Assembly: GCA_020619395.1 (NCBI GenBank)
Contig: GCA_020619395.1_4860.1
Direction: 5' to 3' (one strand)
From: a phage
DNA length: 64,000 nt
Part shown: positions 13,414 to 41,472 of the stretch, one piece after another
Layout: each line of letters begins with the position of its first letter
How positions within the stretch are numbered: position 1 is the stretch's first letter
Notes under the pieces: generated by a model
Database searches by the model: none
Seen by the model: the letters and a program-made list of their open reading frames with translations, nothing else
What the model was told of the DNA's origin: nothing
Position numbers and translations under genes: made by a program

Positions 13414-13425
13414 CGCTAATCCTCA

Positions 13426-13456
13426 GGGGGAAAAAACAGGCGGGTTGCCCCGCCCA
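13426..13456 (-). terminator. rho-independent terminator
   Basis: GC stem ggcggg/cccgcc followed by T-run on minus strand. Confidence 0.5.
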
Positions 13457-13459
13457 TGC

Positions 13460-14953
13460 TTATTTCTTCTTAGTCAAGAACTTAGGTTCCAGACCATCCA
13501 CGGCCATCGCCAGTAATGACATTGCTGTTAAGCAACGCTTACCACCTTTGACTTCCTGATCCTTGAACATCCAGTATTCCACTGTATTGTCCAGAATTTC
13601 ATTCCAGTCCCACTTTTCGTCGATAACTTTATAAAGCTCCGCCGGTGAGAGATGGTATTTCATTTCCAGTCGGTGGTAGTTATTCTGCATGTACGCTAAT
13701 GCGGCGGTGATTTCCAACGCACGGCGCAAACGCGGGTTGGTGTCACACATGTCGCGAATCGTGGTACGCATGAAAGATGTACCAGGTAGCAAATCGAGGG
13801 TATAATTAGCACCACTACGTTTGTAGCCCCATTCATCTTTCAGTGTGTCGCTCAGGTAATGCCACAGTGAGAGGTGATAAAGCAGACCCATCTCCTGTGA
13901 GAAGACCATTTTGAACTTAACGCCTGTGTGACCACCTTTCGCACGGTACTGCGTGAACACGATTTCTTTCAGGTCGTTCACCGAAGCATTCATTGCTTTC
14001 GAACGCGCAGTCGGGTATTTCTCTTCGTTTACACCGGTCTTCGCGTTGTAAGTCTGATCCTGCTTCAACTCACCAGACTTGGTTGCAACCAGCAGGGAGT
14101 TAGTTAAGAACGACAACTGACGGCGCGGGATACCCGCAAACTTCAGATCATCGCCTGCATCGTCCAACAGTTTACCGTTCGCCTTCGGTCCACCACGGCC
14201 ACCTGCCGCCATTGCTTTACCCGCATCGTCGGCCAACTGAGCAACGAAGCCCATATAGAAACCACCACGCGCAAACGCAGACGGCCAACGGCTCATCATG
14301 TTCGATTTCTGCAGCGCATCGTGGGCGTTCAGGATGTTCTGTTCAGAATCACCGACCTCTGATTTGGCGTGTTTCTCTTCCAGGGAAGAGGTGTGCCATT
14401 CGGACAGGGAGTCAATCGAGTACAACCACGGGTCGAGAATCTTTTTCGCAGAGCGACGGATTGGGTCCGGGAACGGTGTTTCACGTGCCTTACCAGCCAT
14501 ATACTCTTTGAAACGTTTTTCGACTTCGTCACGGATATAAGCAGAGTAATACTCCTCACCCGCCATGATATCCGAGCCAACCATGTTGTAACGACCTTCG
14601 TGGATCAGGTCCAGCACGCCGCCTGTTGGTGATACTTCTAATCCGTTTGCTTTCGCAGCGGAGATATACCCCGTTTCCAGACGACTTAATGCTGCCGTAA
14701 CTTCGGTATCGTATTTCGATCCCCAGGCTGCATTATAACGTTGCAGAATCATGAAAATGCAGAAGTCTAATAAGGTAGACTTAAAAGTGTTCCCACGACC
14801 TGCGAAGCCCATGATGTGGGCAAAACCACCGTTGAGGTAGTACAAACCATCTTCCCCGCGCTCGTAGTTACCGAGAGCGTGGTCCATGATGGTATATACG
14901 TTAAAACGAGGGCGAATTACTTCACCCATGACTTGTTTAGCTGGACCTGCCAT
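13460..14953 (-). CDS. hypothetical protein with variant P-loop-like motif (possible RecA/UvsX-like ATPase; uncertain)
   Basis: 497-aa ORF; GFAGRGNTFKST near residue 50 resembles the UvsX-type Walker A variant (G-P-S-K-S-F-K-S); no other motif confirmed. Confidence 0.5.
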   Translation of the reverse strand: MAGPAKQVMGEVIRPRFNVYTIMDHALGNYERGEDGLYYLNGGFAHIMGFAGRGNTFKSTLLDFCIFMILQRYNAAWGSKYDTEVTAALSRLETGYISAAKANGLEVSPTGGVLDLIHEGRYNMVGSDIMAGEEYYSAYIRDEVEKRFKEYMAGKARETPFPDPIRRSAKKILDPWLYSIDSLSEWHTSSLEEKHAKSEVGDSEQNILNAHDALQKSNMMSRWPSAFARGGFYMGFVAQLADDAGKAMAAGGRGGPKANGKLLDDAGDDLKFAGIPRRQLSFLTNSLLVATKSGELKQDQTYNAKTGVNEEKYPTARSKAMNASVNDLKEIVFTQYRAKGGHTGVKFKMVFSQEMGLLYHLSLWHYLSDTLKDEWGYKRSGANYTLDLLPGTSFMRTTIRDMCDTNPRLRRALEITAALAYMQNNYHRLEMKYHLSPAELYKVIDEKWDWNEILDNTVEYWMFKDQEVKGGKRCLTAMSLLAMAVDGLEPKFLTKKK

Positions 14954-14968
14954 TTAGCGCTCCGTCAA

Positions 14969-27521: not shown

Positions 27522-28115
27522 TTACGCTTCGGCCTCAAAGAACGGCTGGTTCGGTACCACTGCATATTCGAGCACGAAAAGATGTTCTGGGGCATCTTCT
27601 GCTCGCCACAGTTTGTGGCACGTTGCCAGTTTTTCCAGGATGGTCAACCAGCTGAGCTGGCAGAAAGCACGATCGCCGAAGAACAGTTTCTGCAGTGCAA
27701 TCGACACATCCATATACGCCTGTTTGAAGTCGAGTTCTTTATCGTAACCCGCCGACTGTCGCCACGTCAGCACGAAGCCTGCTTCGGTTTCGTTAATTGC
27801 TGGACGTAAACCACAAATCCACATCAGCGCCAGATTAACGTTCCAGTCGAATTCGATACCTTCGTCTTCGTCATCACCAAACGCCGCGTTTAACGCGTCG
27901 TAGAAACCGTGGTTCTCTGCGAACCATTCGCCGTACTCAACGTAGACAGGTGCTTCGACAGCTTCCCCATCGGCTTCACCGATAGGACGCTCAACGTAGT
28001 TCGGATTGGTTTGAACGTGTTCCGCACCCGCGCGAATCAGTTCGTAAACGTCTTTGGCGGTGATTTGTGCGGCTGTTTTAAGACCTGGATACCAGGGGCG
28101 TGTTACGAGTGTCAA
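27522..28115 (-). CDS. hypothetical protein
   Basis: 197-aa ORF. Confidence 0.5.
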   Translation of the reverse strand: MTLVTRPWYPGLKTAAQITAKDVYELIRAGAEHVQTNPNYVERPIGEADGEAVEAPVYVEYGEWFAENHGFYDALNAAFGDDEDEGIEFDWNVNLALMWICGLRPAINETEAGFVLTWRQSAGYDKELDFKQAYMDVSIALQKLFFGDRAFCQLSWLTILEKLATCHKLWRAEDAPEHLFVLEYAVVPNQPFFEAEA

Positions 28116-28834
28116 AGCAATGCTCCTTTCATGATAGTGTTATTTGCCAGTAATGTACCGGCCGCAGGTGATATTTTGGTGTACAGCGTATCCCAGATTT
28201 TCTGAAGTTCGGCGACGCGTTGGTCGTGGTCTTCCTTCGCAAAAGCAAGCTGACGTGTTTCAGCTTTCGGTGGTGTCATTTTCGCACCGTAGAATGCTGC
28301 GTCTTTTCGGTAGCTGGCCATCCAGCGTTTCCCGACCGGTGATTTCTTTTTAATCATCGCAACAGCAGCACCCTCACCGAAGCGGTAGCCTAAAGCGATT
28401 TCGGCTGTGCTCGGCTTGCGTTTGAGTTGTTTTGTCAGATGATCCTCGATGTGTTTCATGTAAACGGCAGCAAGCTGTACAGCATATTTCGGTTTATTAA
28501 GGTCCGCATTCTTTGGGATGTTAAGTTGTTTCCCATACAGACGTATCATGGAGCGTTTAGTGCCTGTCGTCATTTGGACAACACTACTAGCACTGCTCGT
28601 TTTATTCTTACCCACGTTTTTATTAAAACGGGATTCACGATAAATGGTGGTCGCGAGCATCCCGGCATGTACGCCTTGTTTTCGAGATGCGGTGACGATG
28701 AGAGGTTTAATCTCATTGAACTGGTCCTGGATAAGGACGAATTCTTTTTGGTGTTTGTTACTGGTGGTCTGGTAAGAAGCGTTGCTGTTGAACGTAGTCA
28801 TTGCTACCAGAAGAAATAAAATGGTGCGAAACAT
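28112..28834 (-). CDS. secreted protein, possible SLT-like lytic transglycosylase
   Basis: N-terminal signal peptide (MFRTILFLLVAMTTFNSNA); YRESRFN...SSVVQMTTGT loosely fits the SLT catalytic E-S...Q motif. Confidence 0.4.
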   Translation of the reverse strand: MFRTILFLLVAMTTFNSNASYQTTSNKHQKEFVLIQDQFNEIKPLIVTASRKQGVHAGMLATTIYRESRFNKNVGKNKTSSASSVVQMTTGTKRSMIRLYGKQLNIPKNADLNKPKYAVQLAAVYMKHIEDHLTKQLKRKPSTAEIALGYRFGEGAAVAMIKKKSPVGKRWMASYRKDAAFYGAKMTPPKAETRQLAFAKEDHDQRVAELQKIWDTLYTKISPAAGTLLANNTIMKGALL

Positions 28835-28924: not shown

Positions 28925-28940
28925 TGATAATATCTATTTG
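28925..28940. promoter_or_regulatory. palindromic motif TGATAATATCTATTTG
   Basis: GATAATATC palindrome core in intergenic region upstream of 28834. Confidence 0.35.
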
Positions 28941-29434
28941 AAACTATTTGGGATGATTTTCTCTGCTTCCCTCAGCAGGGTGTCCGGTAAATAGAATCGA
29001 TAAGTCTGCTCCGTGTGCTGTAGTCGTTTCTGTAAGTGTATAAAGATTTCCAATCGCTCATGGTAACGTAACCAACCGTTAGCCATCCCTAGGGGCGGTA
29101 TCGCAATCCCTCCTTCTAAGTCTTCCCCTAGTCGCGCCAGCGCATCAATGCCGGACGTGACATAGTAAATCTGCGATTTATAGCGAAAATGGGTTTTAGT
29201 AGGAAGGAGTATTACCCCTTCCTCAGGATAACAATAGACCTCACCGATAACGATTTGCTCTTTACGGCATTTCTGGCGATAGTCATTATAAAGCGATGGG
29301 AAGCGTTCTCGGCACGCCAAGGCAATGCCCCTTCCCATTGCACCAACGCAGTTAACTGTAACGACCTTGAAGCGCTCAGGCGCGTTAAACAAGTCGTGGG
29401 AGATAACGGCCTCGTCGATCAGTTCGAGTGACAT
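28934..29434 (-). CDS. macro-domain protein (OARD1/TARG1-like ADP-ribose processing; candidate anti-defence)
   Basis: VNCVGAMGRGIALACRERFP matches the macro-domain G-x-G-I-A signature. Confidence 0.45.
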   Translation of the reverse strand: MSLELIDEAVISHDLFNAPERFKVVTVNCVGAMGRGIALACRERFPSLYNDYRQKCRKEQIVIGEVYCYPEEGVILLPTKTHFRYKSQIYYVTSGIDALARLGEDLEGGIAIPPLGMANGWLRYHERLEIFIHLQKRLQHTEQTYRFYLPDTLLREAEKIIPNSFK

Positions 29435-30356: not shown

Positions 30357-30872
30357 CTATGCTACCGCAGTCCTTAAAGGTTCATCTGCTTCCGCAAGAA
30401 CCTGCTTCTTAAATTCAAGCCATTGTCCGTCTGTAGAGACGGTCTTGTCAAAACCGCGAGCGGTAAAGAACGCAATACCAGCTTCCTGGCAAGCGTATAT
30501 TCCCCCATGCGCACTGGTGAACTGTTCATTCACATCAAGCGCATCAAAAATCTGCGTCATCGTTTTACGACGGCGTGCCATTTCGGACACGAACATCGTA
30601 CGAATCTTCAGAACCCCAGCGATTACGCGATACAAACAGTAACCAACAGGGGTGCCCCCTTCCAGAGCAACACAAGCACGGTTCCCCGCCAACAGTTTCT
30701 CCAGAGTGAGGTTCGGAATCTCACCTTTTTCGATATGGAGTATGGTACGTTGGTGGTTCAGAAATTTATAATGCAGCCCCAACAGCTGTTTATTTTGTGC
30801 TTCCGTTAAATCTGAGGATGAGGAAAGAATGACAATTTCGGCCATGAGCTGAATTCCTAAGTGAGCTTTCAC
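30357..30872 (-). CDS. hypothetical protein
   Basis: 171-aa ORF; weak GNAT-like C-terminal pattern not convincing. Confidence 0.5.
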   Translation of the reverse strand: MKAHLGIQLMAEIVILSSSSDLTEAQNKQLLGLHYKFLNHQRTILHIEKGEIPNLTLEKLLAGNRACVALEGGTPVGYCLYRVIAGVLKIRTMFVSEMARRRKTMTQIFDALDVNEQFTSAHGGIYACQEAGIAFFTARGFDKTVSTDGQWLEFKKQVLAEADEPLRTAVA

Positions 30873-30991
30873 CTGCGATGAAAGCGAGTAACGAAGAATT
30901 GCGTTTGTGTTTTCTTAAGTTTACCGGTAAAGCTTAGCGGTGTATACCGCCAGAGGTGAAGACCAGTTCTCTATCGGAACCGTGTCTTTAA

Positions 30992-31270
30992 TCAGCAACG
31001 ACGTTGAAAACGTCGCGATGCTGAGGTAACCTTCCGTCGCCACATTCGCTCATGGCGCTTCTGATTACCACGCCAGTCTTCCCCGACTGTACGTGAAACT
31101 GCAAAATCATCCGGCCCGCAGACTTCCGCGATGTCTGCTAGAAGGTTCTTTGAAGACCCTATAGCCATCCCCGCGCTCGAAAGAACGATACGCCGGGTTG
31201 GCTCGGCCGCCCCTGAACCCACGACCACGGGATCAGAGACTGTTTCACTGTTACATGATACTTCTCCCAC
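30992..31270 (-). CDS. hypothetical protein
   Basis: 92-aa ORF. Confidence 0.4.
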   Translation of the reverse strand: MGEVSCNSETVSDPVVVGSGAAEPTRRIVLSSAGMAIGSSKNLLADIAEVCGPDDFAVSRTVGEDWRGNQKRHERMWRRKVTSASRRFQRRC

Positions 31271-31498
31271 TTCGTAAATGTCCTCCTGTTAAAACCAACC
31301 TTGCGTCAATGCAAGGATTGCGCCTAGGGCGTATGCGCCCGCTCCTAGTATCAGGCTACAGACGATACACCCAACCCATTTCACTAAAATAACCATGATG
31401 CCAGAAATGCTCCGATTGCACAGATGATAATCGTAATGCCAAGGTCTGTCCAGGTGGCACCATCATACGCACCTGTTGCAATCATGGCTGCGTTGACA

Positions 31499-31747
31499 CT
31501 ATTCACGACTGTCATAAGCCGGGTCCCTTAAACGCGGGGGCTTGCTCCACAGATTACCGAAGTAAACCCCTTCTAAGAACACCAAAACAACTAAGCCCCA
31601 AAAGGCAGGCGTAGCGCGAGACATGAAAATACCGAGTAGCACCACAGTGTGCATTACCACAACTGCCCAAAACTTTAAACGACCAGGTTTACGTCTTGCC
31701 ATGGAATGCCCATCCTTTCGTGCGGATAATCCAACCCCAGGCACCAC
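31499..31747 (-). CDS. small membrane protein
   Basis: 82-aa ORF (likely start at internal MARRKPG...) with two hydrophobic helices. Confidence 0.45.
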   Translation of the reverse strand: MVPGVGLSARKDGHSMARRKPGRLKFWAVVVMHTVVLLGIFMSRATPAFWGLVVLVFLEGVYFGNLWSKPPRLRDPAYDSRE

Positions 31748-31789
31748 GAATCAACCACAGTGCAATACCGGTTAATACGATACCTTCAA

Positions 31790-31981
31790 TCATGTCCGTT
31801 CCCCTATATCTCGCCACTCACAACGCGTGTCGAACAGACGTTCTTTAAGAGCAGCAGCTAAATAAACGACCGCAGCGATAACCACTACGGTTGCACAAAA
31901 GGAGAGGTACAGTACCATCACAACAAACTGAAGGAACTGAAAACCCCACCAAGCCCATAAGCGCCAACCTTTATGATGCAT
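31790..31981 (-). CDS. small membrane protein
   Basis: 63-aa ORF, Trp-rich N-terminus and TM helix. Confidence 0.4.
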   Translation of the reverse strand: MHHKGWRLWAWWGFQFLQFVVMVLYLSFCATVVVIAAVVYLAAALKERLFDTRCEWRDIGERT

Positions 31982-34481
31982 ATTTGATTATTACCCCTTC
32001 GTTATAAACCGGTGGAAGCGTTACACCTTCTGGCTCCACGACACAGTAGGTGGCTTCGTTAAGTTTAGAATGAACTTCCGCTTCATGCGAAACGACCAGC
32101 AATTGAGAAAACTCTCCCGACAACGCCAACGATTTAATGAAGTTGACCAGTCGATTTTTGTGTTCTTCATCCATGCCTTCAGAGGGTTCATCCAATAACA
32201 AAGGATAGTTTTGTAAACCAAGCGCTTTATACGCCGTTAAACGAAACATCATGTTAAAGATAATACGCTGTGCCTTCGAACCTTTCTTCACATCCGGCAC
32301 CAGTTCTTCATGGTCTTTTAATCGCACCGGGAAAGTATAATCCAAATCCCCGTCGGTTAGATCGCATGGAATAACCTGCATCGGATATGCCCACACCATT
32401 TCGATATACCGATTCATTAAATCCATGATGCGGGTAATCGCAGCATAAAAGTAACGACGCAATAATCCTTTTTCGGGTGAGACGGCATTGATAATCAATC
32501 TGGCATGATGGTGTTCTTTGAGCAACTCAGCTTGCTCTTTTTCCAATTCCGCTAAACGTGCAATAGCCCCTTCCATTTGACGAAACCGTTCACGAGCGGA
32601 AGTGTACGCATCGAGCTTCGCTTCGCGTCGGTTTAACAACTCGCGAACCACGACGTTGTTAACGGAGATGTTCATTTCCGATACCAGATGTTCGTAGCCT
32701 TTTTGGAAACGTTCGATTGCTTCTTTGGTTTGTTGCAGTTGGGTGGTTTCGCGTTCCAGCTCATTGGCTTGTCTGCGGTATTCTATCAGTCGACGGTTAG
32801 CCCCGTCCAGTTGTGAACGGATATGTTCAATTTTCTGGCTCAGCGCACCATCAACGTTACCTACTGCGGCAACAGCCTCTTGCCATTCCCGTTCCGCTGT
32901 TGCAAGCTTCGCCGATTGACGCAGATACATCATGGCCGAATCTAGCTCTTCAGTAAAGGCACGTGCAATGGCACCATAACGATCCCGCGCCGTGGTGAAG
33001 ATATCCAGCTCCTGCAGTTTACGGAAAAACAAACCGACAACAGGATGGTTGGAATACGACATGACGATTTCGCGAATCGTACGTAAGCTACGGACGTCCT
33101 CTTCAATCTCTTTGCGGTCACGCAAAAGACTATCCATTTCGTCTTTCAGCTGCTTCTTCCAACCTTCATTATCGTTGATGGCCTTTTCAATTTCAGGTAA
33201 CGACTTACGAATCCCAGGACGGAAACGGTGGTTACACTGTGGACAATCAACTTCTGCAGTTTCTAAGAAGTGTTGACGGTCGTGGTATAAACCGTGTAGC
33301 ACATTCTCACAACGTTGCAGCTTTTCAGATAGACCCGCAGAGGTTAAATCCATACCCTGTAAACGCTTCTCTAACGCTCCCAGGCGATCTGTTGTCTTTA
33401 ACTGGTCCAGATGCATGGACAACGGTAAATTCCAGTTACAGGCATCGTTTAACGCGTTCTGAATGCTATCCACATCAATGCGGGTACCTTCAAACAGAGC
33501 CGGGAACATCCAGTTCTGTTGGAACGTTGCCAGTTCCTGTTTTAAGCTGTCGATTGTTTGTTTTAGACCGGTATGGTTGCGCATCAGATACGCTTGACGC
33601 GACTCCTCATCCAGTAGCTGTGACAACTCTTTATTGTACATGTTGCATTCAGTTTCAGCAGAGGCAGCTTGCTCACGCCAGGCAACTACACGACTTTGAA
33701 ACTCGTTAATCAGTTCGTCAGAAGGCAGAACACCATAACGTTCCATAATGAGTTTTACAGCCGGTTGCAACGAAGCAATGCGTTTCCGGATACTATCAAC
33801 CGAAACGGCGTTATCTAAACCGGGTCTCGCTTCAATGGTACGGTTTAGTTCCTGAAGCTCAGCATCGAGTTCTTTCAAACGAACTTCTAAACGTGCACGA
33901 TCTTCTTCATCATCAACGACGCGCATTTTTGCTTCGCCGATTTTTCGTCCGGTGTGCTCAATGGCCCCACTTAAACTGGAAGCGAGTTTACGCAAACGTC
34001 GATAGCAACCAACAACGTACGTCAGATCAGATTCTGACATTAACGTAAACCATTTACGACGAACTTCGGTAGTGGCGTCAGTTAATAAGGTCTCACCATT
34101 AATTAACTCTTTGATTTCTTTGGTGATTCCGGTTAATTGCTCCACCATGGAGTTGTAAACTTTGGCGTTTACCGAGTCTACGATGGAGACACCTTTAGTG
34201 ATATTGAAAATACTACAAGACAAAGAAGAGCCACGACGCAGGACTTCAAACTTAAGACGGTCGTCCCCAACTAACGCGTAGTTAGTGTAGGAACCACCTT
34301 CACGGAATTCTGATTTTGCTGGAGCTAAGGGGAGAAAAACAGATAGGAGGCTTGTTTTACCGCAGCCGTTGCCACCGAGGATGATGGTAACGGTTGACTT
34401 AAGGGTGAAATCAAACGTTTCGATTTCATGTAACCCCATGCCGGTAAATCCTTTCAAAATGATACGTTCGACCTTGAGCAT
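31971..34481 (-). CDS. SbcC/Rad50-like recombination ATPase
   Basis: N-terminal Walker A GGNGCGKTS, long coiled-coil, central CPQC zinc-hook-like motif, C-terminal signature/Walker B LLLDEPSEGMD...VVSHE. Confidence 0.75.
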   Translation of the reverse strand: MLKVERIILKGFTGMGLHEIETFDFTLKSTVTIILGGNGCGKTSLLSVFLPLAPAKSEFREGGSYTNYALVGDDRLKFEVLRRGSSLSCSIFNITKGVSIVDSVNAKVYNSMVEQLTGITKEIKELINGETLLTDATTEVRRKWFTLMSESDLTYVVGCYRRLRKLASSLSGAIEHTGRKIGEAKMRVVDDEEDRARLEVRLKELDAELQELNRTIEARPGLDNAVSVDSIRKRIASLQPAVKLIMERYGVLPSDELINEFQSRVVAWREQAASAETECNMYNKELSQLLDEESRQAYLMRNHTGLKQTIDSLKQELATFQQNWMFPALFEGTRIDVDSIQNALNDACNWNLPLSMHLDQLKTTDRLGALEKRLQGMDLTSAGLSEKLQRCENVLHGLYHDRQHFLETAEVDCPQCNHRFRPGIRKSLPEIEKAINDNEGWKKQLKDEMDSLLRDRKEIEEDVRSLRTIREIVMSYSNHPVVGLFFRKLQELDIFTTARDRYGAIARAFTEELDSAMMYLRQSAKLATAEREWQEAVAAVGNVDGALSQKIEHIRSQLDGANRRLIEYRRQANELERETTQLQQTKEAIERFQKGYEHLVSEMNISVNNVVVRELLNRREAKLDAYTSARERFRQMEGAIARLAELEKEQAELLKEHHHARLIINAVSPEKGLLRRYFYAAITRIMDLMNRYIEMVWAYPMQVIPCDLTDGDLDYTFPVRLKDHEELVPDVKKGSKAQRIIFNMMFRLTAYKALGLQNYPLLLDEPSEGMDEEHKNRLVNFIKSLALSGEFSQLLVVSHEAEVHSKLNEATYCVVEPEGVTLPPVYNEGVIIKYAS

Positions 34482-34529: not shown

Positions 34530-34567
34530 TGCGTAAAAAAGAAGAAATGGAACCCCGAAGGGTTCCA
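34530..34567 (-). terminator. rho-independent terminator
   Basis: stem ggaaccc/gggttcc with cgaa loop, T-run on minus. Confidence 0.55.
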
Positions 34568-34577
34568 GAGAGGAGAG

Positions 34578-35204
34578 TTATTGCGGAATAAACTTACGGT
34601 GTCCGAGTGATTCCCAAAAACTATCGGTGCGCTCTTTGGTTAATTCGTACCACGCACGTCCGGCATCAGAATCGACAACCTTTAACGTTTCAGTAAGCAG
34701 GAATTTGAACAGTTCTGCGCTACGACCCGGTGCCACGCCGTCGAGATATATCGGGATTAAATAACCGGTTTTGATTTCTTCGTACGGTTGCGATTGGTGC
34801 TGGCCAACAACCCAGGCATCAGCAGCGCTACCGACCAAAGTGGTGTTTACAGTCAACTCATCAGAAATCCAGTTAACTGTATCAGCCATTATTGAATCGC
34901 CATTGACGTAGAAGAAAACTAAACGTTTAGGTTGCTCCACCGAACCAGCCAAATCTAATGCAGTGGTTCCGGTAAAGATCGTATTGTTAGGGTTACGTTC
35001 CGCAATAGGTAGAGCAAACCACGCTTCTAGCTGTTCCCAGCTACGCGGCAGTGCTTCTTTAAACCACTTCACCAATCGCGGGTATTCCAGAAACCCTTCT
35101 ACCTCTTCTTCCATCAGATTGATACGCAGTTTGGTATCCTGACGATTCGCTTTCTGACACGTCACCATGTCGTCGATGAAACGAATCAGGGTAATCTCGT
35201 TCAT
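34578..35204 (-). CDS. hypothetical protein
   Basis: 208-aa ORF; lacks Mre11/SbcD phosphoesterase motifs. Confidence 0.5.
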   Translation of the reverse strand: MNEITLIRFIDDMVTCQKANRQDTKLRINLMEEEVEGFLEYPRLVKWFKEALPRSWEQLEAWFALPIAERNPNNTIFTGTTALDLAGSVEQPKRLVFFYVNGDSIMADTVNWISDELTVNTTLVGSAADAWVVGQHQSQPYEEIKTGYLIPIYLDGVAPGRSAELFKFLLTETLKVVDSDAGRAWYELTKERTDSFWESLGHRKFIPQ

Positions 35205-35214
35205 GTTTAATCCT

Positions 35215-35251
35215 TCTTCAACAAAAAAAGAAGGTAGCCCGTAGGCTACCT
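35215..35251 (-). terminator. rho-independent terminator
   Basis: stem ggtagcc/ggctacc, T-run on minus. Confidence 0.55.
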
Positions 35252-35258
35252 CTCGTAT

Positions 35259-35825
35259 TTACAGCCCCATATGCATAAGGGAAATGATTGGGACCTTACG
35301 GCCACGAATCATTGCATATGGTTCGTACATTTGTGCGTTAGTTTCGAATAACTCACAGGCCGGAATACGGTCACCGGTGGAAAGTTGTAAGACTTCGATT
35401 TGGTCGCCCCAGAAATTGTTTACTAATACGTGGTCGACGGTGTTGTCTTCACGACCTTCAGGGGTTTTGCAATAAGTGGCTGCGGCGTACCAACCTTTGC
35501 GGTATACTTCATAACCCGCATGAAGCATCCGATAGTACGGACGTAGCTGTGGGGCATTCAACGCAGCATCTAACCATTCGCTGTGGATGCTGTTAATCAA
35601 TACGGTTGCTTCTGCTGGCCAGTCGGTGCGATTGAGGGTTAACTCGCCTAACAACTTCAACTTCCAGCCAGTGGAAAGAATGGCACGGGTACGTTCGGGA
35701 TTGACGTTCATCTGAGTAAAGAAAGAAGAACGGGTATCGTCGAGAATGTTCATGTTCATTTGCTTAATCCTTACGAGTAATAGTCGATTAAAAAGGACCC
35801 TGCGGCTAAGTGTTGGGGAAATCAC
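35259..35825 (-). CDS. hypothetical protein
   Basis: 188-aa ORF. Confidence 0.5.
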   Translation of the reverse strand: MISPTLSRRVLFNRLLLVRIKQMNMNILDDTRSSFFTQMNVNPERTRAILSTGWKLKLLGELTLNRTDWPAEATVLINSIHSEWLDAALNAPQLRPYYRMLHAGYEVYRKGWYAAATYCKTPEGREDNTVDHVLVNNFWGDQIEVLQLSTGDRIPACELFETNAQMYEPYAMIRGRKVPIISLMHMGL

Positions 35826-35863
35826 CGCAGGGCCAAAGTGAGATGGGTCGTCATCTCACGTTA

Positions 35864-35878
35864 TAACATCTGTCTGAA
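35864..35878. promoter_or_regulatory. degenerate copy of intergenic motif (ATAACATCTGTCTGA)
   Basis: matches ATAACATCTATCTG at 41449 and the AGATAATATCT family. Confidence 0.3.
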
Positions 35879-35888
35879 AACTTTTCGG

Positions 35889-36272
35889 TTACTGGTCGAG
35901 CGCTACTGAACCACGCACCACCCCTTGCTGTTCAATAACCAGGAGGCGTTGTTTGGTTTTCGTATTGTAAGCGAGCGACGCGCGAAGCGTCGGGTCGCAC
36001 GTTATTGTCTCTACTGGCACAATCTCTTGTGCCTTTGAGTTCAACAGAAAGTAGTAACCTGCCGGACAAGTTTCCTCGCCCTTTGCGTGGACTAGGATGT
36101 ACTCGTCGTGCCGGCTGACTTCTTCACATCTACCATCGTCGCCAGTACAGACTTCGAACGAAGGCGGGTTGTACTGATACGGTGTACCTGGTAGTAAATC
36201 TTCTACGCTGGTTGTAGCTGAAGCAGAAGCGGTAAAGAACACCGCCACGATAATACCCATAAATCCACGCAT
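35889..36272 (-). CDS. exported Cys-containing protein (paralogue family member 1)
   Basis: signal peptide ...ASASA; motif VC-x8-C-x-V ... C-P-A-G shared with neighbours. Confidence 0.5.
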   Translation of the reverse strand: MRGFMGIIVAVFFTASASATTSVEDLLPGTPYQYNPPSFEVCTGDDGRCEEVSRHDEYILVHAKGEETCPAGYYFLLNSKAQEIVPVETITCDPTLRASLAYNTKTKQRLLVIEQQGVVRGSVALDQ

Positions 36273-36285
36273 GTTGTTTCCTTAC

Positions 36286-36696
36286 TTAAAAGTCGAGTTT
36301 ATTGATGCCTACATTTTTCTTAATCGTAGGGTCATACATGATAACCGTCAGGGCATTATCGCCTGGGTCGCGAGTAAACTCGGCAACGGCTTCACCACTG
36401 CAGGCTTGGTTATCATTATAGTTCATGGATTCGGCTTGCCCGGTTGCCATGTTAATGACCCCGTATTCAGGGTCGCCACATGCGACACCGCCCATCGTTT
36501 TCACTAAGAGATAACGGTTGTTATCGGACATCGCAACGATCTGGCAGCTACCGCCTTGTACGTCAGAGTTCTGGCACCAGAACTCTCCGCCGTATTCGTG
36601 ATCGTTAACAACTTTTGGTAACTCGATACTTCCAGCGCGAGCGAAGAAGCTAATGGCCAGAGTAGCAAGTAAAACTGGTAATAAAAAATGTTTCAT
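36286..36696 (-). CDS. exported Cys-containing protein (paralogue family member 2)
   Basis: signal peptide ...FFARA; motif FWC-x8-C-x-IV ... ACGDP. Confidence 0.5.
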   Translation of the reverse strand: MKHFLLPVLLATLAISFFARAGSIELPKVVNDHEYGGEFWCQNSDVQGGSCQIVAMSDNNRYLLVKTMGGVACGDPEYGVINMATGQAESMNYNDNQACSGEAVAEFTRDPGDNALTVIMYDPTIKKNVGINKLDF

Positions 36697-36718
36697 AATA
36701 GCACCTCAATTTTTTGAG

Positions 36719-37210
36719 TTATTCTGAATAGTCGATTGTTTTGATGGTTTCCATACCGTAGTACATAGCGATGGAGGCCAGAGTTTTGGTATCCGGTCGC
36801 TGTACAAAACCGGCCCTGAAATCTTTGCTGCAAATTTTCTCCACTGATAGTTCATCACGATTAGGGATAAGCCATAACGCGTCACCATTGTGACGGTCGA
36901 CTGCACCCCACCAACCACCTGGGCAATCTTTATCGCCCGGACGGTGTACGATAGCGACACGACCGTTGAAGGATATGTCAACTACACGACACTGTTTCTT
37001 AAGCAGCTTACGCGCATTGCACCAGAACGGCTTATCATTAAGATTGATGGTGCGGGTATATGCTGGAATGCTGCCGTTAATACTGCCCTGGAACCCGCTG
37101 AATTCGTCAGCGCGTGCCTTAGAAATCCGTAGCCCAACAACAACTGACATCAACAGCACAGTAAAAAGCACCACTTTGGCCAAGTGGCGATTAACGTTAT
37201 TGCATTTCAT
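36719..37210 (-). CDS. exported Cys-containing protein (paralogue family member 3)
   Basis: likely start at internal MKCNN (ORF track extends to 37255); signal/anchor ...SKARA; motif FWC-x8-C-x-VV ... DCPGG. Confidence 0.5.
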   Translation of the reverse strand: MKCNNVNRHLAKVVLFTVLLMSVVVGLRISKARADEFSGFQGSINGSIPAYTRTINLNDKPFWCNARKLLKKQCRVVDISFNGRVAIVHRPGDKDCPGGWWGAVDRHNGDALWLIPNRDELSVEKICSKDFRAGFVQRPDTKTLASIAMYYGMETIKTIDYSE

Positions 37211-37598
37211 TTTTGATATCTCCACGATTGAGGGTGATGCGACCGACGAGCACATCGTTGTGATAAAAGCTCACAGCAACCATATTCGGTAATTCCAGTG
37301 GTGACACACTGACCGAGGTGACTTTTGGTTGATTGCACGATATGTCAATCAACCGCTGATACATTTTCAATTTCTTATCAGCGATAACCAGCCCTGTGCA
37401 GTTCTTACCGTCCGTCAGTCTGTAGATTTGTAACTGTTCGACCTCACGCATCAGTTCCGGTTTTTCATTCGGCGCAATGCCATAATCCGAATCAGCTGAT
37501 GTGTATTCAGTCACGTCTGGCTTATCGAAAGCATAAGTTGCTGCAATACCACATGCGGCCAGAACTACTACTGCTTGTAAGAACTTCTTGATAGTCAT
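37197..37598 (-). CDS. putative lipoprotein
   Basis: N-terminal signal with lipobox VLAACG; 133 aa. Confidence 0.5.
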   Translation of the reverse strand: MTIKKFLQAVVVLAACGIAATYAFDKPDVTEYTSADSDYGIAPNEKPELMREVEQLQIYRLTDGKNCTGLVIADKKLKMYQRLIDISCNQPKVTSVSVSPLELPNMVAVSFYHNDVLVGRITLNRGDIKNEMQ

Positions 37599-37615
37599 GT
37601 TTTACTCTATAGTCG

Positions 37616-37653
37616 ATTGGTTTAAAAAAGAATAGGCTACCCGAGGGTAGCCA
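37616..37653 (-). terminator. rho-independent terminator
   Basis: stem ggctacc/ggtagcc with cgag loop; T-run on minus. Confidence 0.55.
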
Positions 37654-37703
37654 GTTGAGTTAATCTCTTAACTCTCACCTAGGTAATATATATCTGAGAT
37701 ATT

Positions 37704-38300
37704 TTACAATGTGAAGGTTGTGTTAAGAATACGAAAACCCAATGCTCGCTTAGCGATTTGCATATTTGCAGGCGTGAAGTCCACCAGTTTGATTTGAACG
37801 ATCGATAAATCGTAAAGCTTGTGAAGCACTTCGATTTTGTGTCGCCAATCTGTTTTTTGGTGCAGCTCTATCGTCGTCGGTAACTCACCCAGTCTCGGCA
37901 ACTGCGCCCCAAGTAAACGATGATGGACTTTACCGTTTATAGTTGGGGTGCCTTCCGTGACCATCAGTCGCGCATCGATGTAGTTATTTCGCTTAGCGTA
38001 CTCCATAAAAGTTTTGACATTTATCTTTTCCTCGTATAGAATGCTGCGAAAGTATTCGTAAATGATGTGTCCTGCCTCCCTACCGCTTTCCGAGTCTGGA
38101 ATAACCTTATCGATGAAAATCGCAGAGACCACTTCGCTCCCACGCGAATGCATTGTAATGACCCTATCCCCGTGCTCTGCGGCAGTTAATAATCCACTCA
38201 CATCAAGCCCCACCGGAAACAAGCCACGACTACGCATTACGTGCAGGTCTTCTAACTTGTTCTCTTGCAGTCGTAAAATACGTTCTGTCATATACCACAC
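37704..38300 (-). CDS. hypothetical protein
   Basis: 198-aa ORF. Confidence 0.5.
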   Translation of the reverse strand: MWYMTERILRLQENKLEDLHVMRSRGLFPVGLDVSGLLTAAEHGDRVITMHSRGSEVVSAIFIDKVIPDSESGREAGHIIYEYFRSILYEEKINVKTFMEYAKRNNYIDARLMVTEGTPTINGKVHHRLLGAQLPRLGELPTTIELHQKTDWRHKIEVLHKLYDLSIVQIKLVDFTPANMQIAKRALGFRILNTTFTL

Positions 38301-38319
38301 CTCAAATTAATTTGAGTTA

Positions 38320-38366
38320 AGTGTAAAAAATAAGAGGACTCCAGTAACCGCGAGGGTTACTGGAGA
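38320..38366 (-). terminator. rho-independent terminator
   Basis: stem ctccagtaacc/ggttactggag, T-run on minus. Confidence 0.55.
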
Positions 38367-38370
38367 TAAA

Positions 38371-38898
38371 CTACACACTCAACGTTTCAATGAATTTGAT
38401 GCGCGCTGGGTGAAATGTGTGATAAACAGTTACTGGCGCGTGCGGGCCTTCGGCTGCGTGTATTGCGCCATCGTATCCGCTCAGCAACAGATGGTCATAT
38501 ATCGCACTACAGTTATACGCCACCGATGCCCATAGTGGTAACTTGTCAAACTCTTTAGGGTGTTGGTGGTAAACCTCCATCAAACCCTTTTCAGGATGAC
38601 TCTCTTGGATACGCTCCCACTCATTTGTTTCAATGAGCAAGTTCCCTTTCTTCTGTGCAACTGTCTGGTATTGATGCGGGGAAAGAATCTCGCGGAAATT
38701 ACCGATATCGACGAACGGGTCAGTAGGATCGTTGATAAATGGATTGGTGATTTCCAAAGAAACGTGGTTGATTAGCCAGCTGGGATTCGCTTTAACAATT
38801 TCAGCAGGGACATCGATGTCTTTATAGACAACTTGAGAACGTGAAAGGTTAGCCTCAACAAACGGCTTATCAGTAACAATATAACCTTCGAGTTTCAT
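38371..38898 (-). CDS. hypothetical protein
   Basis: 175-aa ORF. Confidence 0.5.
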   Translation of the reverse strand: MKLEGYIVTDKPFVEANLSRSQVVYKDIDVPAEIVKANPSWLINHVSLEITNPFINDPTDPFVDIGNFREILSPHQYQTVAQKKGNLLIETNEWERIQESHPEKGLMEVYHQHPKEFDKLPLWASVAYNCSAIYDHLLLSGYDGAIHAAEGPHAPVTVYHTFHPARIKFIETLSV

Positions 38899-39461
38899 TA
38901 TAAGGCTCCTTTAAAGTGGTATGTTAAGCTTTCTACGAGATGGCAGGTTTGGCTTTCAAAGAAGTGTAAAATGGGCTCAATGGGCACACCGCCGAGATTA
39001 TAGACGATTACGACATGCTTTAATCCGGCCTCGACTTCGCTAAGAAACGATTCGGTTGCGAGTTCACTCTCTGACGAGGAAAGGGTAATCGTTGTTTCCC
39101 CGTCGTCGCTACTACCAGACACGTCCTGTAAACGCAAAACTGTCGGTACGGTTTTACTGATACGAATATCTGGCGGGAGTGTAACCTCCAGTAGCGGTGT
39201 ACGGACTTTACGCGCAAGATAGTTGGTGAATAGATTGGGATCAAGCTCACTGACGCCGCAGCAAATGCAGCTCAGTAAGGTCGACAAGCTTGTCGTTTTA
39301 CGTTCAAATATCCCCTTGATCTGTTTGGCCTTATCGCTATAAAGGAACACCAGCAGCTGGTCGGGGTTATCCGGTAAATCACTTTCAACTCCTTCCCACT
39401 CCGGATCGTTGCGGATGTGCTCTTGCCAGATATCGTTTCGAATTTCTAGTAAACGGAACAT
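38898..39461 (-). CDS. hypothetical protein
   Basis: 187-aa ORF. Confidence 0.5.
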   Translation of the reverse strand: MFRLLEIRNDIWQEHIRNDPEWEGVESDLPDNPDQLLVFLYSDKAKQIKGIFERKTTSLSTLLSCICCGVSELDPNLFTNYLARKVRTPLLEVTLPPDIRISKTVPTVLRLQDVSGSSDDGETTITLSSSESELATESFLSEVEAGLKHVVIVYNLGGVPIEPILHFFESQTCHLVESLTYHFKGAL

Positions 39462-39470
39462 ACACTCACC

Positions 39471-40052
39471 TTACGCAATGTAAATACCGCGGTGGTTACG
39501 GAAACCGTGTTCTTCGGTAAGGTAACGCGCATAGGTGTGCTCGACGGATGGGGTGTAGCAAACCAGATGCAGTTCCTGACCTTCAGCTAGGCCCGGTAAC
39601 ATGACGTTTAGCCAATCCATCCCGCCGTTCTGCTGTAACGTATCTTGCGACAGCGTTAGTGGCTGAACAATATGCGCTGGGTTACTGTCGTCTTCGCTTT
39701 TCGTAAAACGAAGAATAGCCGGACGGGAACCATCTACTAGTACCGTGCGCGGTAAGTCAAAAGCAACCACCTTCGCTTTCTGTTCGTAGGATGATTTATA
39801 ACGACGTAACAGTCCAATATCGGTATCTAGTACGGTAGCCATCACGTTATACAACATCACTAGACGGGCGTCGTTATCGGTGGTGACGTGTTTTACGAAC
39901 ACCATCATCGGAATACCTTCGCGTTGGAATACCACGAAGTCTGCTTCTTTGTATTTCTCGCAACCTTCTACTACCCGTGGGGCTTTCACGCGATAGCGGC
40001 GGGTCAGTTCTTCGTAGTTCATTTCATGTTGTTCAATAATTGGTTGTGGCAT
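39471..40052 (-). CDS. hypothetical protein
   Basis: 193-aa ORF. Confidence 0.5.
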   Translation of the reverse strand: MPQPIIEQHEMNYEELTRRYRVKAPRVVEGCEKYKEADFVVFQREGIPMMVFVKHVTTDNDARLVMLYNVMATVLDTDIGLLRRYKSSYEQKAKVVAFDLPRTVLVDGSRPAILRFTKSEDDSNPAHIVQPLTLSQDTLQQNGGMDWLNVMLPGLAEGQELHLVCYTPSVEHTYARYLTEEHGFRNHRGIYIA

Positions 40053-40075
40053 GGTTAAATACTCTTTACGGTTAA

Positions 40076-40110
40076 AAAATAAGAAGGGGGTACAAGACCC
40101 CCGATGACGA
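40076..40110 (-). terminator. rho-independent terminator
   Basis: stem gggggt/accccc, T-run on minus. Confidence 0.5.
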
Positions 40111-40112
40111 GA

Positions 40113-41387
40113 TTACAGTAAACGCAAATCTGCGACAAACAACAGTTGACGGCCGTACTTAGTCACTTCTTTCCAGCCATTGTTAACACCCCATTTGATG
40201 ATAGCGTCGTAATGCCACTGTTTCAGTTCGCTGGTACCCCACGCATCCCGTACCGCCTTCGCCGACATCAAATAAGCAGGTTCGGCAACGGAGCGCATTT
40301 CAGAATCTGGCAGGCGAGAAACAACGGAACTGTTCACACGCTGCAGCGTTCCTGACACCTGTATCCAGAACGCAGGCGATATTGTATTTGTCGGTCGACA
40401 GTCAAATACCCAGGCCGTGTCATTTTCACTGGCCGGGGTCTTACGCTTATAGATGCTTAACAGTATTTCCGATTGGATAACTTCGCGGAAAACGTTAAGA
40501 AGGGTGACGACCTTCTCATTAACCACATCGCCTTTTTCGACCTTATGGTAATCTTTAAGGTTTCCGGGCTCTGCTATCGGCATTACTGACCAAACATCGG
40601 CGTCTAACATCTCACCGAAATAATGGTTAGCGTTTTCATCAGATGTCCAGAACATCGTATTGCCATCATTGGCTATGGTGGCTAGATCACGCAGTGCTTC
40701 CTTGGTGTCTTCGTCAATTTCCACAGGTTTGGCTGCTTCACGCGGTGCGTTTTTCGTGTAGAATCTGCGCTTGCTTACCGCTCTATTCCATACGGTAGTA
40801 ATTTGGTACGCAGTGAATTCGGGGAACTGCTGCACCAACACTTCTGCATCAACATCAAGCCGCTCTGAATTAAAGTTTTGTAATTTCTCATTAAACCCTG
40901 TATTCAGCTCTCCGCCAGTCCACCAGTTGCTGTCGCTTAGTGCAGGCATGTCAGGTGTTAACTCGAACACCGGTTTATCGATCAGCAGAGTAAGAATGTA
41001 GTGCACCCACATTGTGTTACCCTCAGCAATGGCGCGTCCGATGTTTTGATTACCCGATAGGTAAGCTACCCGCGAATCCCCTTCGAACGTCATGGTTAAT
41101 TCAACCCACGGCGCTAAGTCAGAGACGTGGTGGCCTAAACGACACTTTACTTCCCCTTTGTCAAGCAGACGCTTTTCGACAACGGTTGAGAGCTTTTGTG
41201 GCAGGCACGCACAATCCTGCCACGTTACGTCGCTGTAAGCCATACTCCGAACACTGAACTGCATTCCCAACAGTACAATTGTGTTAGTAATTACTGCATT
41301 AAAGAATGCTTCTTTCGGTGTCTGGTAAACTAATTCGTATTCGTTATACATTTGGTATTTCCTTTTAAAGTACACTAAAGTGACCAA
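40113..41387 (-). CDS. hypothetical protein
   Basis: 424-aa ORF (alternative start at MYNEYE, about 41351). Confidence 0.55.
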   Translation of the reverse strand: MVTLVYFKRKYQMYNEYELVYQTPKEAFFNAVITNTIVLLGMQFSVRSMAYSDVTWQDCACLPQKLSTVVEKRLLDKGEVKCRLGHHVSDLAPWVELTMTFEGDSRVAYLSGNQNIGRAIAEGNTMWVHYILTLLIDKPVFELTPDMPALSDSNWWTGGELNTGFNEKLQNFNSERLDVDAEVLVQQFPEFTAYQITTVWNRAVSKRRFYTKNAPREAAKPVEIDEDTKEALRDLATIANDGNTMFWTSDENANHYFGEMLDADVWSVMPIAEPGNLKDYHKVEKGDVVNEKVVTLLNVFREVIQSEILLSIYKRKTPASENDTAWVFDCRPTNTISPAFWIQVSGTLQRVNSSVVSRLPDSEMRSVAEPAYLMSAKAVRDAWGTSELKQWHYDAIIKWGVNNGWKEVTKYGRQLLFVADLRLL

Positions 41388-41448
41388 AAACTGTTACTAA
41401 AGAACAGTTGGTGTTTAAGCGACTGTGGGTTTATACACAATGCTCACG

Positions 41449-41464
41449 AAGATAACATCTATCT
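41449..41464. promoter_or_regulatory. degenerate copy of intergenic motif (AGATAACATCTATCTG)
   Basis: intergenic, about 60 nt upstream of the minus-strand start at 41387. Confidence 0.3.
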
Positions 41465-41472
41465 GTAAAAAC

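Follow-up and report, generated by a model that had tools for sequence, protein, structure and literature searches.

The closest described system is that of the giant Salmonella phage SPN3US, in which Thomas et al. 2016 (PMC5105663) assigned gp186 as the SbcC subunit, shown by an amber mutation to be essential, and gp27 as the SbcD subunit. In the same study, the SbcC and SbcD genes were found to be "drastically separated" in SPN3US, phiKZ, and their relatives, functionally linked genes being generally split in these genomes (e.g., RNAP subunits and head genes), and BLASTP detected no similarity to T4. Jumbo myophages practically universally have SbcC and SbcD (PMC7824862). The core genes of phiKZ include orf165, in which there were no transposon insertions (PMC12676376), and ASO knock-down of 165 gives a phenotype, which is mild only (PMC12571901). 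Consequently, the discovery value of the present analysis is small: the ATPase, its essentiality, its partner, and the gene split are already known, having been published for SPN3US in 2016 and since confirmed in phiKZ. The oddity of an orphan Rad50, implied when this DNA was first read, is likewise not new, as the split was published in PMC5105663.

Among better-known systems, T4 gp46/gp47 and Escherichia coli SbcC/SbcD similarly combine a Rad50-class coiled-coil ABC ATPase bearing a CxxC hook with a calcineurin-like Mre11/SbcD nuclease, and recombination-dependent replication of T4 requires gp46/47 (cited in PMC5105663). However, the two genes are clustered or form one operon in T4 and E. 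coli, whereas the phage pair considered here is ~92 kb apart, and both the signature motif of the phage ATPase (SKAQ) and motif III of its nuclease (GTPSHD) are unlike those of T4/E. coli. Both subunits find their best matches in sequence and fold among archaeal and eukaryotic Rad50 (P. furiosus, M. jannaschii, C. thermophilum) and among Mre11 (T. maritima, P. furiosus, human), with pairwise identities of only ~8-18% in the fold alignments; by fold, the phage nuclease is closest to E. coli SbcD. Archaeal Rad50 resembles the 836-aa phage protein in overall size and in the position of the hook at its midpoint. The archaeal mre11-rad50 genes usually form one operon, in contrast to the unlinked partner genes of the phage.

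The window, by which we mean the whole 64-kb stretch of DNA analyzed, shares 99% identity with Salmonella phage 1252 and, at the DNA level, 96% with SPN3US. Its source is an SPN3US-like giant Salmonella phage, a further isolate of the genus Seoulvirus of phiKZ-related jumbo phages. A tRNA scan and an Rfam scan of the window were both empty. The locus under study has the same 836-aa length of the ATPase, the same neighbors, and the same downstream 63-aa membrane ORF as SPN3US, from which it shows no difference of substance. We conclude that the gene very probably encodes the Rad50/SbcC ATPase subunit of a phage Mre11-Rad50 (SbcCD-like) end-processing complex, the nuclease of which, gp27, is encoded ~92 kb away.

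The ATPase gene and its family placement

The gene and the motifs of its product, which were identified in the sequence or by alignment to P. furiosus Rad50, are as follows.

31971..34481, minus strand: Rad50/SbcC-like ABC ATPase gene, 836 aa, ATG start (ORF; orthologous to SPN3US gp186 (ACQ60_gp080, YP_009153480.1) and phiKZ ORF165)
34353..34376, minus strand: Walker A/P-loop GGNGCGKT, residues 36-43 (read directly in the sequence)
33234..33245, minus strand: CPQC, putative zinc hook, residues 413-416, at the exact midpoint of the 836 aa (sequence)
32268..32282, minus strand: signature-like GSKAQ, residues 734-738, in place of the S-G-G-Q/E of the ABC signature (alignment to P. furiosus Rad50)
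32085..32201, minus strand: Walker B LLLDE (761-765), D-loop SEGMD (767-771), and H-loop SH (798-799) (sequence; aligns to P. furiosus Rad50)

These motifs are strongly conserved. In the family alignment, G36, N38, G39, G41, and K42 of the Walker A, both hook cysteines (C413 and C416), and D764, E765, D771, S798, and H799 of the C-terminal head are invariant. The Walker A is kept in the homologs of CR5, SL2 (phiKZ-like), Goslar, and Aphrodite1, and homologs down to ~21% identity have CPxC at the protein midpoint. The C-terminal signature motif, which had been reported in this protein from sequence alone, is there in a modified form: its serine, which aligns with the signature serine of P. furiosus Rad50, is kept, but the motif reads GSKAQ rather than the canonical LSGGQ/E. 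Within the close family G734, S735, A737, and Q738 are invariant, and in more distant homologs the motif is SAAQ, SDSQ, SKGQ, or SGGE.

The AlphaFold (AF2) model of the protein predicts two ATPase lobes at the termini, forming a bipartite head, and nearly continuous long helices (138-407 and 428-696) flanking the hook loop. CPQC is placed within the short loop that links helix 367-407 to helix 428-476, so that the predicted apex is a ~20-residue CxxC loop with no globular hinge. The motifs, the profiles, and the model thus agree in supporting the initial description of an 836-aa SbcC/Rad50-like ATPase with a Walker A, a long coiled coil, a CPQC hook, and a C-terminal Walker B.

As for family placement, the protein matches phrog_77 ("SbcC-like") with E=1.5e-96 in a PHROG scan, and its top specific matches in NCBIfam are Rad50 models, with E-values of 3e-16 to 1e-10 and scores that fall far short of the cut-offs of these models. 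The ATPase and its nuclease partner are very divergent proteins, neither of which reaches the cut-off of any curated Pfam or NCBIfam model; the Pfam SMC_N match, also below threshold, covers only the N-terminal P-loop region of the ATPase. In PDB sequence and profile searches, P. furiosus and M. jannaschii Rad50 rank first, and the best fold match of the model is Chaetomium thermophilum Rad50 (7zr1_D, E=1.6e-18). The fold search also returned condensin, SMC, Smc5/6, MukB, Lamassu LmuB, and JetC (E-values of 1e-15 to 1e-8), and the PADLOC LmuB profile scores 72 bits (E=1.4e-20), on par with Rad50. Membership of the SMC/Rad50-type class is therefore firm, with a lead of Rad50 over other SMC-class proteins that is modest, and the Rad50-specific assignment is made because of the hook, the best matches, and a co-occurring Mre11.

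Homologs of the ATPase are present in ~298 phage records (tblastn). The genes of Seoulvirus genomes are 96-100% identical, and phage SPLA1a encodes exactly the same ATPase protein as the window. The protein homolog search reached ~30% identity among the matches listed, the more distant homologs coming from the phage collection. Judged at the sequence level, the ORF is confirmed to be real, its phrog_77 score and its homologs in 298 phage records arguing against a chance reading frame.

A distant Mre11/SbcD partner

The sequence-only reading had proposed, as one possibility, that the nuclease partner is encoded elsewhere in the genome, and this proves to be the case. The partner is SPN3US gp27, a 382-aa protein identical to the product of the phage 1252 CDS at 215333-216481, which lies 91.6 kb from the SbcC gene of that phage, beyond the 64-kb window. 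The gene is present in SPN3US, SPLA3, and phage 1252, and a search for Mre11/SbcD in related complete genomes found it in each of the complete Seoulvirus genomes covered. The SPLA3 CDS, which is without motif I and has no Pfam match, could be taken for a degenerate or split nuclease. We rejected this, as the loss stems from a 91-bp tandem duplication peculiar to the SPLA3 record; motif I is present in the intact 382-aa gene of the other genomes.

The relationship of gp27 to Mre11/SbcD is seen best at the level of the family. A PDB search with a single SbcD-like sequence returned nothing relevant, and a family profile was needed: this matches T. maritima Mre11 with E=4e-13 over nearly the full length (to residue 368 of 379), the next matches being P. 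furiosus Mre11 and E. coli SbcD. Against Pfam Metallophos, gp27 reaches only E=0.032, although PF00149 is a precomputed match for several distant homologs. The alignment of 31 family sequences shows no or almost no variation at D22-x-H24, G57-D58, H101-D102, H180, and G211-H212-x-H214. The AF2 model of gp27 (pLDDT 91, pTM 0.82) gives 18 top matches in a Foldseek search of the PDB that are all Mre11/SbcD (E=5e-14 to 3e-7), the best being E. coli SbcD (7yzo_A), while generic phosphoesterases such as LpxH reach only ~1e-4. In this monomer model, C-terminal helices 356-363 and 371-381 are predicted beyond a lower-confidence linker, as candidates for a Rad50-binding helix-loop-helix. By its motifs, its family profile, and its modeled fold, gp27 is confirmed as a true Mre11/SbcD.

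The nuclease nevertheless has a peculiarity. Its motif III is GTPSHD (97-102) rather than G-N-H-D, with a Ser at the canonical Asn position, and judging from this motif, its catalytic details may differ from the canonical ones. The phage Mre11-Rad50 pair shows conserved departures from canonical catalytic motifs.

The two genes occur together. The ATPase is found in ~298 and the SbcD-like protein in ~290 phage records, with near-identical counts per host genus, and such a near-identical phyletic spread is expected of an obligate two-subunit enzyme. Their separation recurs as well: among the matches listed, the two genes are 94-171 kb apart in record coordinates in 9/9 distant records with both positions (SL2, ANB1, PhiPA3, Noxifer, AH06, Aphrodite1, pEt-SU, SPLA10, and LAh10), and they are also unlinked in SPN3US, SPLA3, and phage 1252. 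The non-adjacency of the pair is thus based on nine distant genomes, three Seoulvirus genomes, and the literature. Since Pfam fails to call so divergent a partner, and since 90-130 kb of the map typically lie between the two genes, a missing adjacent Mre11/SbcD in phiKZ-like jumbo phages should not be read as an orphan Rad50.

Annotation in public records is confusing in this respect. The "nuclease SbcCD subunit D" of OQ383623.1, which we considered as an adjacent nuclease, was rejected because the label sits on the 836-aa ATPase gene itself, and MT679221.1 apparently has the same label under its match. More broadly, in several GenBank records either the ATPase bears the wrong name "SbcCD subunit D" or the true nuclease is still called "hypothetical".

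Alternatives to an Mre11-Rad50 complex

The alternative that survives best, though we consider it unlikely, is that we are dealing with an SMC-class or LmuB-like ATPase whose chief function is independent of Mre11, e.g., DNA organizing/condensing or defence/counter-defence, with the SbcD-like gene being a separate matter. [quoted passage not shown] However, linked genes are generally split in these genomes (PMC5105663), so that the separation of SbcC and SbcD carries little weight. Moreover, Rad50 ranks first in both sequence and fold searches, and the distribution of the protein is near-identical to that of the Mre11-fold protein. SMC proteins proper (Smc, MukB, condensin) have a globular hinge at the apex, a domain that is absent here, where the model instead has a short loop with an invariant CxxC.

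The context points in the same direction. LmuB and JetC share with the phage protein an ABC head and the coiled-coil class (fold matches of 1e-10 to 1e-8), but LmuB is encoded in a host defence operon with LmuA (with or without LmuC), whereas the phage gene is a core gene, essential in a lytic phage, and co-occurs with an Mre11 homolog. No kleisin-, KITE-, LmuA/LmuC-, or JetA/B/D-like gene was found in the four neighboring ORFs scanned, three of them against PADLOC and ORF 31499-31747 against Pfam and PHROGs only, in which it has no defence-related match. A defence system (Lamassu or Wadjet), as raised by the LmuB match, was rejected because of this context and the co-occurrence with Mre11. 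The suggestion, made with the original observation, of an SMC-like protein with another role is therefore unsupported, the phage encoding an Mre11-fold protein that co-occurs with the ATPase.

A variant of this explanation retains the complex. The ATPase might have gained a second, Mre11-independent job, e.g., an SMC-like organization or tethering of replicating genomes in nucleus-forming phages, with the two subunits on different expression schedules and assembling only for end processing. The uncoupled genes, the long coiled coil, the drifting signature (SKAQ, SDSQ, SKGQ), and the Asn-to-Ser change in motif III could be accounted for in this way, but we regard it as decidedly improbable.

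A third alternative concerns the genes next to the ATPase, namely the ORFs at 34578-35204 and 35259-35825 and the following features.

31790..31981, minus strand: 63-aa ORF, predicted to span the membrane once (residues ~19-45), SPN3US gp187 homolog (phrog_16515, function unknown, E=2.6e-29)
34548..34567, minus strand: terminator-like G+C-rich hairpin followed by a T-run, within the 96-nt spacer that immediately precedes the SbcC gene (consensus scan)

One of these small flanking ORFs (34578-35204, 35259-35825, or 31790-31981) might encode a novel, non-Mre11 nuclease or an adaptor for the ATPase. They are conserved as PHROGs of unknown function, and the ATG of the 63-aa ORF overlaps the final 11 nt of the SbcC gene, stop codon included, suggesting coupled expression. 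In addition, Thomas et al. (PMC5105663) likened membrane ORF gp187 to T4 gp47.1, raising the idea of a similar membrane anchor; a role of the 63-aa protein as an accessory or anchor protein is speculative. Against this, the ATPase genes of CR5, SL2, Goslar, and Aphrodite1 are not accompanied by a counterpart of any of the flanking ORFs, the 63-aa ORF included, and these ORFs therefore look like lineage-specific insertions; in SL2, Goslar, and Aphrodite1, the conserved neighbor of the ATPase is a divergent baseplate-like gene. The hairpin, as a sequence feature, suggests that the ATPase gene is transcriptionally apart from the upstream small ORFs.

Direct searches gave no indication of a nuclease next to the ATPase either. 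The four scanned neighbors have no Pfam match above threshold, and Pfam and PHROG scans of the neighbors revealed no phosphoesterase. Neither the ORFs at 34578-35204 and 35259-35825 nor the 63-aa ORF matched anything in Pfam or PADLOC, and when the first two were aligned to the profile of the phage SbcD family with hhalign, the probabilities were 0.2% and 0.1%, respectively. In the window as a whole, an unfiltered HMM search for Mre11/SbcD over 760 stop-to-stop frames (six frames) has a best E=1.7, and tblastn with the phage SbcD a best E=0.57. The early observation that neither flanking gene is calcineurin-like holds in Pfam, PADLOC, hhalign, and the frame-wide HMM search, and the result that was to count against it, a flanking ORF matching Mre11/SbcD, did not materialize. 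We thus give this third alternative very little probability.

Finally, the notion that the phage ATPase recruits host Salmonella SbcD and has no phage-encoded nuclease partner, for which one could cite a 64-kb window without an Mre11/SbcD relative and a phage SbcD-like protein easy to miss with Pfam Metallophos (E=0.03), is effectively refuted by the presence of gp27, i.e., of a conserved protein with the Mre11/SbcD fold and invariant catalytic residues that is found in all complete Seoulvirus genomes searched and, together with the ATPase, in ~290 records. The ATPase is not closely similar to E. coli SbcC and finds its best matches among archaeal and eukaryotic Rad50. Furthermore, in related phages of the phiKZ type, replication takes place within a protein shell from which most host proteins are shut out, and by analogy the same may hold for this phage.

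Proposed role in DNA end processing

How might an Mre11-Rad50 complex of this phage, our preferred explanation, be built and operate? The N- and C-terminal half-domains of the ATPase would meet via a coiled coil of ~270 residues per arm that folds back on itself, and two ATPase molecules would be joined at their apical CPQC motifs by a shared zinc ion, zinc binding being presumed. Upon ATP binding, the two heads would clamp on DNA, with the divergent Mre11/SbcD nuclease subunit supplied in trans; a physical complex with gp27 and nuclease activity are likewise presumed. Together, ATPase and nuclease most likely resect DNA ends, which would feed the UvsX-like recombinase of the phage, and thereby promote recombination-dependent replication and repair, presumably as T4 gp46/gp47 do. 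Such a role in recombination-dependent replication would account for the essentiality of the gene.

The recombinase gene is outside the locus, 17 kb away.

13460..14953, minus strand: UvsX-like recombinase gene (phrog_97, E=2.8e-55; same annotation in SPLA3)

Its product is the likely downstream user of the resected ends. RuvC-like and DprA-like genes are also present in the phage genome.

A Rad50/SbcC-type ATPase in a Seoulvirus lineage

The ORF at 31971-34481 contains the Walker A, CPQC, signature-like and Walker B motifs that the sequence-only reading had claimed for it.

Features of the ATPase gene and protein, as read from the sequence
31971-34481, minus strand: ATPase ORF, 836 aa, ATG start
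Residues 36-43: Walker A, GGNGCGKT
Residues 413-416: CPQC, at the midpoint of the protein
Residues 734-738: signature-like motif, GSKAQ
Residues 761-765: Walker B, LLLDE
Residues 767-771: D-loop, SEGMD
Residues 798-799: H-loop, SH

Across 15 aligned homologs, with identities as low as 29%, the invariant positions include the Walker A residues, the two hook cysteines, G734/S735/A737/Q738, D764/E765, D771 and S798/H799. Four far more distant homologs, from phages CR5, SL2 (phiKZ-like), Goslar and Aphrodite1 (a Vibrio phage), share 21-43% identity; all four have CPxC at the exact midpoint, and their signatures (SAAQ, SDSQ, SKGQ and SGGE) keep the serine while the two glycines drift. The AlphaFold model (mean pLDDT 79) has an N-terminal β-rich lobe and a C-terminal lobe, with CPQC on a short loop between long helices 138-407 and 428-696. 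This predicted Rad50/SMC layout without a hinge domain bears out the proposed long coiled coil with a CPQC hook.

The ATPase matches phrog_77 ("SbcC-like subunit", E=1.5e-96) in PHROGs and shows only P-loop matches, all sub-threshold, in Pfam. In NCBIfam, the best specific matches (E=6e-20 to 2e-10) are three Rad50 models and one for an archaeal SMC-related protein, each scoring far under its cut-off. Among solved structures, P. furiosus and M. jannaschii Rad50 rank first, both by single sequence and by family profile. In the fold search, both Rad50 chains from the MRN complex of C. thermophilum rank highest (E=1.6e-18), ahead of condensin, Smc5/6, MukB, Lamassu LmuB and JetC. The protein is thus firmly a Rad50/SMC-type ABC ATPase, and its specific assignment to Rad50/SbcC follows from the invariant apical CxxC, these top matches and the existence of an Mre11/SbcD partner. 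An Mre11-independent role, either SMC-like (one of three explanations originally offered for the missing neighboring nuclease) or LmuB-like, could draw on the SMC-type folds and on a PADLOC score of 72 bits against LmuB; set against those three lines of evidence, it is a weak rival and improbable.

A 5-kb stretch around the gene shares 99.1% identity with Salmonella phage 1252 (PP695294.1), 98% with the SPFM and SPLA phages and 96% with SPN3US, the type phage. These phiKZ relatives are jumbo myophages of ~240 kb and belong to the genus Seoulvirus. The gene therefore comes from a well-studied lineage in which complete, near-identical genomes supply its whole-genome context. Its SPN3US ortholog, gp186 (95.7 kDa, phiKZ homolog ORF165), is the SbcC subunit and is essential, as evidenced by an amber mutant, while gp27 was named the SbcD subunit (Thomas et al. 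2016, PMC5105663). Later studies are in line with this: in phiKZ, gene 165 is listed as a core gene whose knock-down has a phenotype (PMC12571901), and it tolerated no transposon insertions (PMC12676376).

The distant SbcD partner

The absence of a phosphoesterase from the flanking genes was upheld. ORFs 34578-35204 and 35259-35825 belong to PHROGs of unknown function, have no match in Pfam or PADLOC, and reach hhalign probabilities of 0.2% and 0.1%, respectively, against the phage SbcD family. A search of the 760 stop-to-stop frames of the window with the SbcD-family HMM, filters off, gave nothing better than E=1.7. Hence, no flanking ORF matches Mre11/SbcD. Neither ORF has a counterpart beside the ATPase gene in CR5, SL2, Goslar or Aphrodite1; that a flanking small ORF encodes a novel partner is a weak proposal, and very unlikely.

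The complete-genome search located the nuclease gene. In phage 1252, the closest genome, the ATPase gene (121209-123719) and the nuclease gene (215333-216481) are separated by 91.6 kb, which puts the latter outside the window. Among the explanations first offered, a partner elsewhere in the genome therefore stands, while recourse to host SbcD, the weakest rival, is scarcely credible.

The nuclease protein is identical in phage 1252 and SPN3US. Since Pfam Metallophos matches it with only E=0.032, its identity was tested independently. In the family alignment (31 sequences), D22/H24, G57-D58, H180 and H212/H214 are kept and EGTPSHD is invariant. The family profile matches T. maritima Mre11 over its whole length (E=4e-13), with P. 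furiosus Mre11 and E. coli SbcD next. AlphaFold modelling gave a confident structure (pLDDT 91, pTM 0.82), for which Mre11/SbcD proteins make up the first 18 fold matches; the best is E. coli SbcD from the SbcCD head complex (E=5e-14), and generic phosphoesterases trail at ~1e-4. The phage partner is therefore a genuine, divergent Mre11/SbcD. In contrast to the canonical motif III, G-N-H-D, the phage proteins have G-T-P-S-H-D (gp27 residues 97-102; invariant in 31/31 homologs), with a two-residue insertion and with Ser in place of the metal-binding Asn.

The SbcD-like gene is present in all 36 other records matching its region, with at least 95% identity in 33. In SPLA3 (OR413581.1), a PHROG-annotated genome, an "SbcD-like subunit" lies at 32863-33921; by record coordinates, the SbcC-like gene is ~146 kb away from it. 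A perfect 91-bp tandem duplication at ~32782-32963 shifts the frame in the SbcD-like gene, which is why SPLA3 annotates a 70-aa ORF and a 352-aa ORF without motif I; the region spans 1401 bp there versus 1310 bp in 32 of the 36 others. The duplication either arose in assembly or is a true mutation, which would probably inactivate a presumably essential gene.

Annotation of the pair is inconsistent between near-identical genomes. The original SPN3US record already names the SbcD-like gene "putative nuclease SbcCD D subunit", while OQ383623.1 and MT679221.1 carry "nuclease SbcCD subunit D" under the match to the ATPase, which is subunit C; we confirmed this label in OQ383623.1 (CDS 12637-15147). 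Both genes are labelled "hypothetical protein" in several SPFM records and in phage 1252. In ~10 SPFM records (e.g., LR535911.1, LR535905.1 and LR535907.1), the alignment of the SbcD-like region is broken into 22-24 pieces and matches to the SbcC-like protein are only fragmentary, which points to frameshift-ridden assemblies, not biology.

Gene separation and proposed role

By tblastn, 298 phage records contain the ATPase and 290 contain the nuclease, with almost identical counts by host genus (ATPase/nuclease: Pseudomonas 81/81, Erwinia 62/62, Vibrio 22/23, Serratia 21/21, Aeromonas 19/19, Klebsiella 16/16 and Ralstonia 13/13). In nine distant genomes with both positions among the matches listed (SL2, ANB1, PhiPA3, Noxifer, AH06, Aphrodite1, pEt-SU, SPLA10 and LAh10), the record coordinates put 94-171 kb between the two genes, which corresponds to ~90-130 kb along the shorter arc of the map. 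SbcD adjoins the ATPase gene in none of four distant loci examined. The split characterizes the family and is not peculiar to the window. The pair is practically universal among jumbo myophages (Iyer et al. 2021, PMC7824862). The separation was already known in this lineage (Thomas et al. 2016, PMC5105663); what is new is confined to the biochemical consequences, as yet unexplored, that the conserved motif variants and the distance between the genes may have.

The ATPase very probably acts as the Rad50/SbcC subunit in an Mre11-Rad50 machine of the phage, serving recombination-dependent replication and repair. Its anatomy and essentiality, the family placement and the co-occurrence of the pair are demonstrated; we infer the complex with the nuclease, zinc binding, nuclease activity and the role in the pathway. 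ATP-driven head engagement and hook-mediated dimerisation would regulate the Mre11/SbcD dimer encoded in trans, which would resect DNA ends for the phage UvsX-like recombinase; by analogy with T4, resection would support recombination-dependent replication and repair. Recombination genes are scattered, not clustered, within the window.

DNA and RNA metabolism genes in the window
13460-14953, minus strand: UvsX-like recombinase
20593-22107, minus strand: RNase H-domain protein, 504 aa
22107-22826, minus strand: Rv2179c-like 3'-5' exonuclease

Surroundings of the ATPase gene

The SbcC-like gene of SL2, Goslar and Aphrodite1 has a baseplate-like gene as its immediate neighbor, transcribed divergently. 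The homolog of the baseplate-like gene in the window (41976-42908, plus strand) lies ~7.5 kb from the ATPase gene, and the intervening small minus-strand ORFs (34578-41790), without counterparts at those three loci, look like a lineage-specific insertion of accessory genes.

Genes near the ATPase gene
28112-28834, minus strand: SLT-type transglycosylase, shortly downstream of the locus
28934-29434, minus strand: macro-domain protein (in some records, protein-ADP-ribosylation protein or phosphatase)
30357-30872, minus strand: GNAT acetyltransferase, shortly downstream of the locus
31790-31981: 63-aa ORF, gp187 counterpart, overlapping the ATPase stop by 11 nt
35889-36272, 36286-36696, 36719-37255 and 37197-37598, minus strand: four consecutive small ORFs

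The ~1.1 kb that separates the acetyltransferase gene from the SbcC-like gene (30873-31970) holds only tiny ORFs (92, 82 and 63 aa), whose annotation differs between records; no tRNA or Rfam match was found there. Thomas et al. 2016 (PMC5105663) pointed out gp187, a 63-aa membrane protein, directly downstream of gp186. Strong terminator-like hairpins on the minus strand (34548-34567 and 35231-35252), with 8-9 bp G+C-rich stems followed by T-runs, occupy both gaps flanking ORF 34578-35204; the whole 5.1-kb region has 10 terminator-like sites versus 5.3 expected from shuffles. Two scanned ORFs of the 35889-37598 cluster match PHROGs of unknown function. Each of the four has a hydrophobic, signal-peptide-like segment at or near its N terminus (e.g., MKHFLLPVLLATLAISFFARAG and MTIKKFLQAVVVLAACGIAATYA), and together they may be a jumbo-phage gene cluster for small exported proteins.
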